A stretch of 64,000 nt of DNA, taken from Microthyrium microscopicum. Taxonomy: Eukaryota. Within the stretch, counting starts at the first letter, position 1; each line of letters opens with the position of its first letter. The notes below the pieces were generated by a model. That model was given only the letters and a program-made list of their open reading frames with translations, did no database searches and was not told the origin of the DNA. The stretch spans positions 1,377,122 through 1,441,121 of the forward strand of contig MU004233.1 of the NCBI GenBank assembly GCA_010405405.1, written 5' to 3'. Of the stretch, positions 1-3,132 are shown one piece after another. A program made the position numbers and the translations under genes.

Positions 1-382
1 GCCCCAGGCTCACAGGCTGAGAGAAAATGCAGCTATTCCGAAATAGGCGCTAGCGTCGCACTTCTGGTCTTCTTGGCACTCTTTCCATCAAGCAATTCTA
101 TCTTTTGCAACCACAACTCTCCTCTCCCCATCCAACCATCAACCATCACCAACCCCCATAATAACAGAAGATCAACCCATTCCCTCGAAAAGTCTATACA
201 GTCCATCGCTCATTATATCCACCTTCTGATCAGCTCAGATTTAAAGCTCAAAGCCCTCTGAGTTTCTTCGCAAAGCAGTTGACCGCATCAAGCACCTGCT
301 AGGTCGCGTTGTCGCGCGTTGTTCAGCATCGCTGAGCGTGAACTTTCATTTTTGAAAGCACTAATCAAAGCAGCACTACGCA

Positions 383-3132
383 ATGGCCGACGAGGATTTC
401 GAAGATGATCTCTTCGCTGATGTGTAGGTCCATCTTTTTCCGTTTGCAGAGCTCAGTCGCTAACAATATTTTCAGCTATGCCGATGATGCACCACCTGCC
501 CCCGCACAGCCTTCACAGCCTGTTGCCGAACCTTCCCAGACCGCAGTGAATATATCAGCCCCGGTCCAAGTCAAAGAAGAAGAGGCATACGAACCACAAT
601 CAAATGGTTACGACCAAACTGGTGGTTCTGGTTATGATGATGGCACAGGCATGGGCAATAGCGGTGTGAAGATAGAGCAATATCAAGGTCATGATGAACA
701 GGATTATAATGACGATAGTGGCAAAGCTGTCATTAACGAAGACGGGTAAGTTATTTCGCAAAACTTGATATTTTATTCTAGCGGTATTATACACCTTCGT
801 GGGTATTCATTTGCGCGGGACTCGACACTCCAGGACCAGTATTGAGATATATGGGAACACTTGGAGGAAGGGAAAGAGAGACTTCCAGCTATGATCCCAA
901 GTTTCACCATTCATTTAGACTGTTGTTGGGTGACTGTCGAATGTTGTCAGAATGGGCATTCAGAGAGACATGAAAAGACTGCAGCTAAACCACATTCCTT
1001 GCATGGGATTTGTGTAAAGCTATGGCAATGCGGCAGACGGAAGGGCTCGGATGAACTCTTTGAATAATGGATTCGGCATCGGGGATAAGGTGTGGGAAAA
1101 TCTGAACGACGCCATCAAAATATGCTTATGCTTCTTGAGAGAAAGATCGTGGGTGTAACAAAAAGGAAAGGCCAGTCAGACTCTTACAAAACCACCTACC
1201 ACGGTACCATTGGTACCAGAACCTTCATGTCGATATATCCTGATAGTTCAGATCCGATAGTCGTCCTTGTCAGAGATTGCCGGAAGCGATCTGCAGGACA
1301 CAGCTAGCAACCGTCTTGGTAGCAAAATACTTTGGGTTTATCCGAGAAACGATTCTTTTCTTGCTACTACCGCTGCCTTGACAACTGCTGTGGTTATTAA
1401 GGCTTTCCAATGTCGTTTCACGTATTGGCCTTCAGCCATTTGCCTCGTGTGGAATCGAATAGCTTCCACCGAACAAATCAGCTTGCGCACCAATGGTAGT
1501 TGGATGAATTCGAATTCTTGGTGGAGCTTGGGGATACTGCAACTACACAGAACTGAAGGCCTAAATCATTGCTTTGAGTATTGTCCAAACAAAGAGCACC
1601 AAAAAGCAAACATCATCGGATACTTCATGTTCCATTGAATACCTGGAAACCAAACTCACCACCCAGAATACGAACTCTGGAGACCTCGCAATTGAATACC
1701 TGCTCAATGCCTAACATGACCGCCAAATATATATAGATTTAGTGCTAACCATTTCTTTCCGTAGGAAAATGTTCATTGGAGGACTTAATTGGGAAACATC
1801 GGATGGTATGATAGATTCTTATCTGTACTCGATTGATATTCTAATAATCTTTACCAGACTCACTTCGCAGCTACTTCTCTCAGTTTGGTGAGGTCACAGA
1901 ATGTACCGTGATGCGTGATGGAGCTAGTGGTCGCTCACGAGGCTTTGGCTTTCTCACCTTCCGTGACCCAAAGGTCGTCAACACAGTCGTTGTCAAGGAA
2001 CATTTCCTCGACGGCAAGATTGTACGTAGAGATTCTCTGTGTCAGTCACCAAATAACTAACATCGTGTAGATCGATCCAAAACGAGCGATTCCCCGAGAT
2101 CAACAAGAGCGAACAGCCAAGATCTTCGTGGGTGGTGTCAGTCCAGAAGCCTCGGAACAAGACTTTAAGCAATTCTTCATGCAGTTTGGCCATGTCATCG
2201 ATGCTACATTGATGATGGACAAAGATACCGGACGTCCTCGAGGATTCGGCTTCGTCACATTCGACGGCGATGATGCAGTTGATCGCGCTCTATCACAGCC
2301 ACTTGAGATCTATGGCAAAATGATGGAAGTCAAACGTGCCCAACCCCGTAGCGCATTGGCAGCTGAAGAGCAAAAGCCTAAATTCGGCCGACAGCGCGAT
2401 AACCAATTCGGAGCCGGTCGAGGCAACGGCGAATCGTCAGGCAACTTTGACCAGCAAGGCCAAATGGGTGGAGGCGCACCAGGCATGGGAGGTGGCCAAG
2501 CTGGAATATCACCGGCCATGATGGCCAAGTATTGGTTCAACATGCAACAGTATTTTAAGCAAATGCAAACTTCTATGATGGCCGGCTCAATGGGCATGCC
2601 GGGCGGCGGTATGGGTGGCGGGCAGATGAATCCGGCCATGATGCAGCAAATGATGGCCATGGGCGGCGGTGGAGGACAAATGAATCCAGCCATGATGCAG
2701 CAGATGAGCCAAATGGCCCAGCAGCAACAATCCCAACAACAGGCTGGCGGTAGCAACCAAGGCGGGTTTAGTCCACAAAGCCAAGGTAGCAGAGCCAACA
2801 GCCAGGCTAATTTCAATAATGCGGAGCAAGAACAGCAGGGTCAACAGCAGCAATACAACCAGCAAGCCAACTACGGCGGTCAAGGTGGCCCAGCATCGTG
2901 GGATGGCATGTACGACGACGTTCCGCCTCCTAACGGTGGTGGCCAAGGAGGTCGTGGTGGCTATGGACGTGGTGGCTATCGTGGTGGACGACAGCAAGGC
3001 ACGCCTCCAGTTGGGCCGTCTAATGCTCCTATCAACGCTCCGACTGGCCCAAAGAATGCTGGTCGACCGGGCGCCAACTATAGAGGTGGTGGACGTGGTG
3101 CTAATCGTGGATTCCATCCATATTCACGCTAG
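383..3132 (+). CDS. HRP1: Hrp1/Nab4 / Musashi-like RNA-binding protein (2 RRMs, Q/G/M-rich low-complexity tail, RGG boxes, PY-NLS); exons 383-423, 476-745, 1765-1805, 1858-2021, 2071-3132
   Basis: The spliced model reads MADEDFEDDLFADV...GKMFIGGLNWETSD...RSRGFGFLTF...KIDPKRAIPR...KIFVGGV...RPRGFGFVTF and ends RGFHPYSR. All introns are GT-AG with branch sites and keep the frame. Confidence 0.9.
746..1764 (+). other. Unusually long (1019 nt), extensively self-complementary spliceosomal intron
   Basis: Donor GG|gtaagt at 746, branch tgctaac at 1743-1749, acceptor tag at 1762-1764. Splicing restores the conserved GKMFIGGL start of RRM1. Nested complementary segments are listed in the findings. 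Confidence 0.85.

Follow-up and report, generated by a model that had tools for sequence, protein, structure and literature searches.

The analysed window, a stretch of 64,000 nucleotides from the genome of Microthyrium microscopicum, contains on its + strand the orthologue of the Hrp1/Nab4 gene (CF IB). The encoded protein has two RRMs and a Met/Gln/Gly-rich tail with RGG repeats, the tail being read from the translation; exons 3-5 (1765-3132) encode RRM1, RRM2 and this tail. The gene had been labelled Hrp1/Musashi in the first-pass annotation; the best relative of solved structure is Nab4/Hrp1 (2cjk), to which RRM2 is matched with E 4e-46, versus 5e-32 for the next match and 2e-20 for Musashi, and exon 4 gives E 4.5e-24 with the same structure, so that the Musashi part of the label is abandoned. 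Exon 1 (383-423) is followed by intron 1 (424-475, 52 nt), which is defined by a spliced joint 423>476 in RNA contigs; exon 2 (476-745) ends in ..NEDG and, as for exon 1, contigs and reading frame both support it. Contigs of run X5 then join 745 to 1765 and thus bear out the proposed long intron 2 (746-1764, 1019 nt, GTAAGT...TAG, phase 2). Contig joints also delimit exon 3 (1765-1805), exon 4 (1858-2021) and exon 5 (2071-3129, stop codon at 3130-3132), with Pfam RRM_1 found in the last two. The three other introns of the gene, of 52, 52 and 49 nt, are removed in the same contigs, and all four joints are GT..AG; the earlier statement that the other introns of the region are short holds for these three, the only ones compared, and intron 2 is about 20 times their length.

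Near its 3' end intron 2 carries a branch-point-like CTAAC (1745-1749), read from the sequence, and the 3' splice site TAG (1762-1764); CTRAY is the fungal branch consensus. At its 5' end an in-frame TAA (747-749), where the frame 342..749 ends, is read upon intron retention, and a retained intron would thus truncate the protein ahead of both RRMs. A 125-codon open frame inside the intron (1261-1638) matches no Pfam family and is not conserved, and tblastx of the intron against the orthologous loci found nothing.

The long intron is a constant feature of this gene in the relatives compared. All 12 orthologous metagenome loci carry an intron of 985-1648 nt at the same codon, just before RRM1, within a shared junction context (..KEDG|GTAAGT ... 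AG|G-KMFIGGLNWE in 12/12), and L001, which is devoid of introns 1, 3 and 4, retains intron 2. Since the intron of L006, L009, L010 and L011 is identical to that of L005 or L008, these four were dropped, and the comparisons comprise 9 distinct intron sequences including that of the window; L013 and L014 had been discarded before all counts as non-orthologous (37% identity, E ~5e-4). Exon 4 identity among the lineages is about 70-83%. An HMM built on the intron alignment of four lineages (L004, L005, L007 and L008) matches only a mid-intron core in the window and in L001; thus, other blocks conserved among the four are not demonstrated as common.

Run X5, taken as RNA because its contigs are spliced, also contains unspliced intron 2. 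The spliced junction has a depth of 617.9 versus 183.5 for an unspliced unitig (717-1793) that spans both exon-intron borders, with no extra joint or loose end seen; about 23% of the k-mer depth at the junction is thus unspliced in this RNA data set, a figure that derives from the contigs of one run and not from reads. No unspliced contigs were found in X5 for the introns of 49-52 nt. Intron 2 therefore accumulates selectively unspliced in this run, as do large autoregulatory introns of the YRA1/DBP2 type. No premature 3' end inside the intron is seen in the X5 contigs, which give neither strand nor transcript ends. In runs X6, X7 and X8 the only trace of intron 2 is a 264-nt identical piece in X7.

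The mid-intron core lies at 1223-1252 on the + strand (CUUCAUGUCGAUAUAUCCUGAUAGUUCAGA), at 0.47 of the intron length; it was recognised by a blastn match to L008-L011, and its profile envelope is about 1200-1263. Directly upstream, an apical hairpin, GGUACC-AUU-GGUACC (1203-1217, + strand), is predicted with all 6/6 pairs of 1203-1208/1212-1217 and an ensemble probability of 1.00; hairpins with other stem sequences are predicted at the same place in L001, L002, L004, L005 and L007. Over 66 nt the core is 91-98% identical among L004, L005, L007 and L008, versus 75-83% for their exon 4; the window core is 80-87% identical to these four, versus 71-74% for exon 4. On these alignments the core, taken over 30-66 nt, is more conserved than the RRM-coding exon 4. 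RNAalifold on the core alignment gave no consensus structure and, folded locally, the core region does not stand out (z +0.76 to -2.5). A stem around the core, GCUUCUUG/CAAGAAGU, is shared by L001, L004, L005, L007 and L008, L001 having a single compensatory pair; the window forms only 3/8 of its pairs and the stem also fails in L002 and L003, so that it was dropped as a general feature. The UAUA tract of the core is predicted to be unpaired (0.8-0.99) in 4/4 introns examined, and in 7/9 introns a (UA)3 lies no more than about 50 nt away from the core. Because yeast Hrp1 binds (UA)n and the core UAUA is predicted to be exposed behind the hairpin, the core may serve as a protein-binding site, with Hrp1 itself as the most plausible ligand, although the motif is taken from S. 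cerevisiae. The notion of a regulatory platform, put forward in the first-pass annotation, fits this conserved core and the selective retention of intron 2.

A different explanation, which we consider rather unlikely, is that the core acts at the DNA level, as an internal promoter or enhancer, or that it is a poison exon or the site of another factor, with the helix at the intron ends only aiding removal; an example of the first kind would be an internal promoter/enhancer whose transcript begins close to the Met of ..KMFIGG... The core does show conservation of its sequence and little internal covariation, and (UA)3 is absent from the entire intron in L002 and L012, whose core has GAGAGGAA in place of the GAUAUA of the others. 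The core also carries UCUUG (at -3) and GUAG (at +32 to +41), each in 5/9 introns, which we take to be Nab3 and Nrd1 motifs, and the 183.5-deep unitig comes from contigs that cannot separate a retained intron from another transcript. However, this unitig crosses both intron borders, with neither an additional joint nor a loose end in X5, and the core matches once per locus and on the + strand only. Moreover, it stays at a fraction of 0.41-0.53 in 9/9 introns even though their length varies from 985 to 1648 nt, and so constant a position is more in keeping with an RNA apex than with a DNA site.

The core lies within a fold that the first-pass annotation had described as a continuous giant rod of eight nested stems. 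The listed complementarities are all present: 802-815/1687-1700 has 13/14 pairs (mean pair probability 0.92 in the ensemble), 828-833/1677-1682 has 6/6, 895-909/1519-1533 has 15/15 with 3 G-U (0.91), 967-971/1410-1414 has 5/5 and 988-994/1389-1395 has 7/7, while 910-929/1490-1508 reaches a mean pair probability of 0.64. Nevertheless, the ensemble favours only 4/8 of the listed stems, the remaining four scoring 0.00, 0.01, 0.00 and 0.27, so that the continuous rod is not what it predicts. The second-tier helices, with 5' strands at 895-929 and 3' strands at 1490-1533 (+ strand; helix scan and ensemble), gave no evidence of conservation. Folding energy hardly distinguishes the intron either: the MFE is -284.6 versus -271.8 +/- 8.1 for shuffles (z -1.58; 4/109 shuffles as stable), and in two relatives it lies above that of most shuffles (22/22 more stable in L007, 17/22 in L004). 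The G-U pairs, cited earlier as an argument for selection on the sense RNA, do not serve this purpose, since the best helix has none and the antisense strand folds equally well (MFE -282.4); among the end-region duplexes the sense strand is more stable in only 5/9 introns, the window not being one of them. Rod-likeness, taken as the number of MFE pairs that enclose the middle, amounts to 120 in the window, a value reached by 1/22 shuffles and by 5/55 native segments. Among the seven introns taken into this test (L001 and L012 were left out), pairs enclosing the core beat nearly all shuffles in five (1/22, 1/22, 2/22, 1/25 and 1/21 reach the value), whereas the statistic is reached by 14/22 shuffles in L003 and 5/22 in L002. 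The giant rod, as modelled, is thus only partly supported.

These values speak for intron 2 as an ordinary long intron, with a rod such as any 1-kb RNA gives in an MFE fold and with stems paired by chance: energy close to that of shuffles, an antisense strand that folds equally, half of the listed stems at probabilities of 0.27 or below and native segments that are as rod-like. This explanation is already disfavoured and we hold it to be improbable, as the position and size of the intron are conserved in 12/12 loci, its core is better conserved than exon 4, and a helix that chance rarely provides is predicted to join its two ends. The 5' arm of this terminal helix lies at 799-818 and the 3' arm at 1684-1703, both on the + strand; the extended pairing has a probability of 0.92, and the 3' arm contains UGAAUACC, homologous to UGAAUAGC of L004, L005 and L007. 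Its score of 35 is reached by 1/1000 dinucleotide shuffles of the two end regions and by 2/398 native 1019-nt segments of the same window; the end windows of these controls, as of the duplex-energy control, were set after the result of the gapless-helix scan. In that scan the top long-range helix joins both intron ends in the window, L002, L012, L003 and L005, and a lower-ranked one does so in L004, L007, L008 and L001. The number of shuffles per 1000 that reach the score is 1 for the window, 0 for L002 (score 52 versus a shuffle maximum of 47), 1 for L012, 2 for L005, 9 for L004, 21 for L003, 60 for L001, 73 for L008 and 90 for L007. By duplex energy, shuffles out of 300 reach the native value in 0 cases for L002, L012 and L005, 1 for L008, 3 for the window and 6 for L004; the pairing is not significant by this measure in L007 (38), L001 (98) and L003 (153). 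Fisher's method applied to the helix shuffle p-values, with L012 left out, gives a combined p of about 9e-9, which overstates independence, because L004, L005, L007 and L008 share ancestry.

The pairing of the intron ends thus recurs in orthologues with unrelated sequences, and it is accompanied by compensatory changes, as the covariation check suggested at the outset would have it. In a homologous 11-bp helix of the window, L004, L005, L007 and L008, 51/55 cells pair, versus 18-29/55 in slid controls, and 5 columns change on both sides; the 5' arms entered this count as best partners, two of which are tied in L005 (intron positions 97 and 163). The predicted helix loops out about 870 nt and leaves a linker of 53 nt between 746 and 799 and another of about 44 nt between 1703 and the adenosine of CTAAC (1748), a branch point by motif only. 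The proposed shortening of the donor-to-acceptor path to about 120 nt agrees with the predicted pairing, which leaves 56 nt (746-802) plus 64 nt (1700-1764).

It is very unlikely that the arms are the terminal inverted repeats of a TIR transposon (MITE) relic within a formerly short intron. Inverted repeats of 17-20 nt do lie 865 nt apart, in the window the end duplex of the antisense strand equals or exceeds that of the sense strand in stability, and both sides carry two copies of the arm motif (GGUAUUCA at 802, GGCAUUCA at 955; UGAAUACC at 1636 and 1693). However, there is no second copy within the 64-kb window, no direct repeat flanks the arms on reading the sequence, and the long intron occupies the same site in 12/12 relatives, with a common core, diverged covarying arms and no empty site; with exon 4 only about 70-83% identical, one would not expect TIRs to outlast such divergence without selection. 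Long nested pairing and the frequency of snoRNAs in fungal introns would suit a source of dsRNA or small RNA, or a host of a snoRNA or other processed small RNA, a reading we give hardly any weight, as no Rfam family, H/ACA types being covered by Rfam alone, was found between positions 300 and 3300 at E up to 1, nor at gathering score in L001, L002, L004 and L007, a box C/D arrangement with terminal stem occurs in 0/9 introns, and the helices are short and interrupted, unlike long perfect dsRNA.

The terminal helix as an aid to splicing has its closest parallel in the zipper stems described for S. cerevisiae introns, including RPS17B, RPL7A/B and others (PMC12350175, PMC2536676). As in yeast, the helix extends from downstream of the 5' splice site to upstream of the branch point and would shorten the effective distance, it belongs to the long intron class, and sequence drift between species leaves its structure in place. 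The pairing (13/14 for 802-815/1687-1700; 0.92 for the extension 799-818/1684-1703) and the placement, 53 nt downstream of the 5' splice site, with about 44 nt left to the motif-inferred branch adenosine, are those of a zipper stem. However, the definition given in PMC12350175 sets a total of 42-85 nt for the linkers from 5' splice site to stem and from stem to branch point, and here they amount to about 97 nt (weaker outer MFE pairs would shorten this, though not robustly); exceeding this yeast-derived limit, the helix would work in a zipper-like manner and not be a strict member of the class. Other differences are the length looped out, about 870 of 1019 nt, while long yeast introns are mostly of 400-500 nt, and the host, a filamentous-type ascomycete whose normal introns are of about 50 nt. 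The terminal helix also shows compensatory changes across lineages, while covariation of zipper regions is described as hard to find in yeast, where introns diverge so fast (PMC12350175).

For regulation, three yeast systems are relevant. YRA1 and DBP2 of S. cerevisiae are reported to be autoregulated via large introns, both with poly(A) sites, and the preprint suggests intronic cleavage/polyadenylation as the mechanism (PMC12458251). The Hrp1 gene likewise encodes an mRNA-biogenesis factor, its unspliced RNA accumulates, and the intron is far above the norm in length (1019 nt versus 52, 52 and 49; 985-1648 nt in 12/12 relatives). In yeast, however, dependence on the own protein is demonstrated, while autoregulation through intron 2 is proposed by analogy, and the Hrp1 contigs display no intronic 3' end comparable with the yeast poly(A) sites. 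S. cerevisiae HRP1 itself has an attenuator in its 5' UTR of about 380 nt, which acts by NNS termination and needs functional Hrp1 protein, i.e. autoregulation, and Hrp1 binds (UA)n (PMC12458251). The gene family is the same and a highly conserved non-coding stretch lies within the transcription unit in both cases, but the yeast element is in the 5' UTR and the present one in an intron. Finally, in RPL7B autoregulation, as reported in PMC12311795, the zipper stem is lost when the protein binds a conserved alternative structure. The proposed arrangement would be similar, in that a zipper helix would enhance splicing and another conserved element within the intron would sense the own product; RPL7B has an alternative structure, while in the present intron a mutually exclusive one is no more than conceivable, on account of the duplicated arm motifs (955-962 and 1636-1643).

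Taken together, these data favour, with a probability of roughly 0.55, the reading of intron 2 as an old, conserved regulatory intron of the ascomycete Hrp1/Nab4 gene. By analogy with the yeast systems it is probably a zipper-like intron through which Hrp1 regulates its own production. The terminal helix would make an otherwise oversized intron spliceable, and an excess of the core-binding protein could slow splicing or induce premature 3'-end formation within the intron. Transcripts that retain the intron would stop at the TAA at 747-749 and yield no RRM protein, leading to the proposed negative feedback. Intron 2 may thus be the intronic counterpart of both the S. cerevisiae HRP1 5'-UTR attenuator and the large autoregulatory introns of YRA1 and DBP2. 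Only tentatively, and with odds that we place against it, a broader view can be advanced: filamentous ascomycetes may dose the essential 3'-end factor Hrp1 by an ancient device of about 1 kb within an intron, with a zipped base and an ultraconserved, Hrp1-recognised (UA) element at its apex, in which excess Hrp1 would switch splicing to retention or premature termination; this device could be an ancestral or parallel form of the budding yeast HRP1 5'-UTR attenuator, moved into an intron.

Outside budding yeast, nuclear pre-mRNA introns rarely have long-range structure that is both conserved and covarying. The present locus unites a terminal helix kept across lineages with exon 4 identities of about 70-83%, a core conserved above the level of the exon, and selective retention. 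No published description of Hrp1 intron 2 was found in the literature, and the main texts of two fungal structured-RNA screens contain 0 mentions of HRP1, although their supplementary tables could list it. Hrp1 selects poly(A) sites and is reported to matter for growth and virulence in plant-pathogenic fungi; the protein vanishes under carbon starvation while its mRNA level is constant (PMC4288187). A regulated intron offers one testable route to such post-transcriptional control of Hrp1.

The two-RRM protein gene at 383-3132 of the forward strand is on sequence similarity an Hrp1 orthologue: Pfam RRM_1 is found in exons 4 and 5, among proteins of solved structure yeast Nab4/Hrp1 (2cjk) is closest to each of the two RRMs, and ascomycete RRM proteins form the nearest Atlas clusters. 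The Hrp1 half of the earlier Hrp1/Musashi label is therefore kept and the Musashi half dropped, since RRM2 matches 2cjk with an E value of 4e-46, followed by hnRNP D-like (5e-32), Musashi reaching 2e-20. Contigs of run X5, taken as RNA from their spliced joints, connect 423 to 476, 744 to 1764 (cut +1), 1804 to 1857 (cut +1) and 2021 to 2071, all GT..AG; thus, the gene contains four introns, which measure 52, 1019, 52 and 49 nt in order. For the long one, the coordinates 746-1764 given by the first-pass annotation are exact. In the air-metagenome run X8, two pieces of the gene over 427-703 differ from the window at 3 and 0 of 151 nt; a third, over 2198-2279, derives from a relative, since it departs from the window at 15 of 82 nt and its flanks are unlike.

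Unitig depth in X5 is 617.9 for the spliced junction versus 183.5 for the unspliced form (717-1793), the latter representing about 23% of k-mer depth at the long-intron junction in this one data set. No unspliced contig of the three small introns was present in X5, thus the intron-containing molecules appear otherwise spliced, and the long intron appears to be selectively retained or very slowly removed. When it is retained, the reading frame runs directly into a TAA at 747-749. The X5 contigs, which are strandless and lack transcript ends, display neither an intronic 3' end nor an alternative junction. A 125-codon stop-free frame within the intron (1261-1638, forward strand) is probably due to chance, since it matches no Pfam family and is not conserved in relatives.

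Scanning of metagenome contigs with RRM2 gave 14 loci, two weak ones being left out and 12 being orthologues (73-84% identity). In all 12, exon 2 ends with ..KEDG|GTAAGT and the next exon starts from G-KMFIGGLNWE, with 985-1648 nt between them; they represent nine distinct intron sequences. In locus L001 (268-2806) this site holds an intron of 1648 nt and introns 1, 3 and 4 are missing, ..DLFADLYEGDD.. being contiguous and exons 3, 4 and 5 abutting; it either is a transcript retaining only the long intron, or comes from a lineage where the small introns disappeared and the large one persisted.

The recurring feature of the intron ends is structure, not sequence. In a gapless-helix scan, the top-scoring long-range helix joins both ends in the window, L002, L012, L003 and L005; in L004, L007, L008 and L001 such a helix is present at lower rank. 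With end windows fixed after the scan result was known, best helix score and duplex energy were reached, respectively, by 0/1000 and 0/300 shuffles in L002, 1/1000 and 3/300 in the window, 1/1000 and 0/300 in L012, 2/1000 and 0/300 in L005, 9/1000 and 6/300 in L004, 21/1000 and 153/300 in L003, 60/1000 and 98/300 in L001, 73/1000 and 1/300 in L008, and 90/1000 and 38/300 in L007. The window helix (799-818/1684-1703) also stands out among native segments, 2 of 398 matching its score. The L002 arms have nothing in common in sequence with those of the window; the homologous 3' arm is UGAAUACC in the window and UGAAUAGC, UGGAUAGC or GGAGUAGC in L004, L005, L007 and L008, which share ancestry. Covariation, the test proposed for the orthologous introns, bears out this terminal helix: over 11 bp, with 5' arms picked as best partners (two tie in L005), 51 of 55 cells are paired and five columns changed on both sides, and sliding the partner by 1-3 nt leaves 18-29 of 55 paired. 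In the window, L004 and L008 the perfect 11/11 partner is the best in the whole upstream intron.

The first-pass annotation had proposed that the entire intron folds into a giant nested rod. Every complementarity it listed is present; the partition function favours only half of the eight stems, with pair probabilities of 0.92 (802-815/1687-1700), 0.91 (895-909/1519-1533), 0.64 (910-929/1490-1508) and 1.00 (apical hairpin 1203-1217), and the other four remain at 0.00-0.27. Comparison of the whole intron with 109 dinucleotide shuffles gave weak support (MFE -284.6 kcal/mol versus -271.8 +/- 8.1; z -1.58, 4/109 as stable); the antisense strand has an MFE of -282.4. The 120 MFE pairs enclosing the intron middle are reached by 1/22 shuffles and by 5/55 native 1019-nt segments of the window. 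Given the weak z, the half of the stems and these native segments, the rod is not proven by the window alone. Its G-U pairs, read as a sign of selection on the sense RNA, do not sustain that argument, since the terminal helix has no G-U pair and the sense strand of the end regions is more stable in only five of nine orthologous introns, the window not among them. Core-enclosing pairs exceed nearly all shuffles in the window, L007, L004, L005 and L008, are less clear in L002 (reached by 5/22) and show no excess in L003 (14/22).

The core, at 1223-1252 in the window, is a short block with UGUCGAUA found at 0.41-0.53 of the length in every intron, as variants UAUCGAUA in L003 and UGUCGAGA in L002 and L012; its profile gives one match per locus, on the forward strand only, and none further in the window or 5-kb flanks. 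Identity is 91-98% over 66 nt among L004, L005, L007 and L008 (RRM1 exon 4, 75-83%), and 80-87% over 30 nt between these and the window (exon 4, 71-74%). The hairpin upstream of the core varies in stem sequence (window, GGUACC/GGUACC; L004, L005, L007 and L008, UAUAGUA/UACUAUA), and one is also predicted in L001 and L002. In all four introns tested, the UAUA tract of the core is predicted to be single-stranded (0.8-0.99), and in seven of nine introns a (UA)3 is found no more than about 50 nt from the core, L002 and L012 having none anywhere. The core also contains UCUUG and GUAG, which we take to be Nab3 and Nrd1 motifs. Folding of the region revealed no unusual stability, and RNAalifold no consensus structure. 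Coding sequence (no Pfam family, no conserved frame), a C/D snoRNA (box C/D scan) and a known RNA family (no Rfam match) were all rejected. Additional 3'-half blocks, CUAGCUUCGGACU..UUAGACAGG, GACAGUGACAAUUCAC..CGCCUGAAC and GCUCAUGUAAACCA, are conserved among the introns of L004 (3629-4683), L005 (3404-4643), L007 (1332-2316) and L008 (3345-4636), and are not detectably common to the window. The strongest Hrp1-type motif of the window intron is an (AU)4-type run, AAUAUAUAUAG (1726-1736), about 10 nt upstream of a branch-point-like CTAAC; the other eight introns have no (UA)3 at the matching position.

The data document a conserved oversized intron whose base helix is conserved and covarying, whose middle carries a conserved core, and which is selectively retained. 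The core may act as a sensor, and the most plausible protein for it to sense is Hrp1 itself, a (UA)n binder; the budding-yeast protein regulates the HRP1 gene via a conserved attenuator in the 5' UTR, and autoregulation of YRA1 and DBP2 depends on large introns holding poly(A) sites (PMC12458251). In the RPL7B intron, a zipper stem can be defeated by a protein bound to a conserved element (PMC12311795).

Measured against published yeast limits, the window helix falls outside the strict zipper-stem class, its linkers totalling about 97 nt where 85 nt is the maximum (PMC12350175); it may function in a zipper-stem manner on a larger scale. No description of a conserved long Hrp1 intron was found in the literature: it is mentioned neither in the accessible part of the M. 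oryzae Hrp1 paper (PMC4288187) nor in an F. graminearum transcriptome preprint, and two fungal structured-RNA screens make no reference to HRP1 in their main texts. In the window, the arm motif occurs twice in each half of the intron: in the 5' half as GGUAUUCA (802-809) and GGCAUUCA (955-962), and in the 3' half as two copies of UGAAUACC (1636-1643, 1693-1700) embedded in an exact 12-nt repeat, ATTGAATACCTG. With these copies, an inner helix could form inside an outer one, or the arms could pair in alternative registers; the arrangement could represent a switch or the trace of a segmental duplication.
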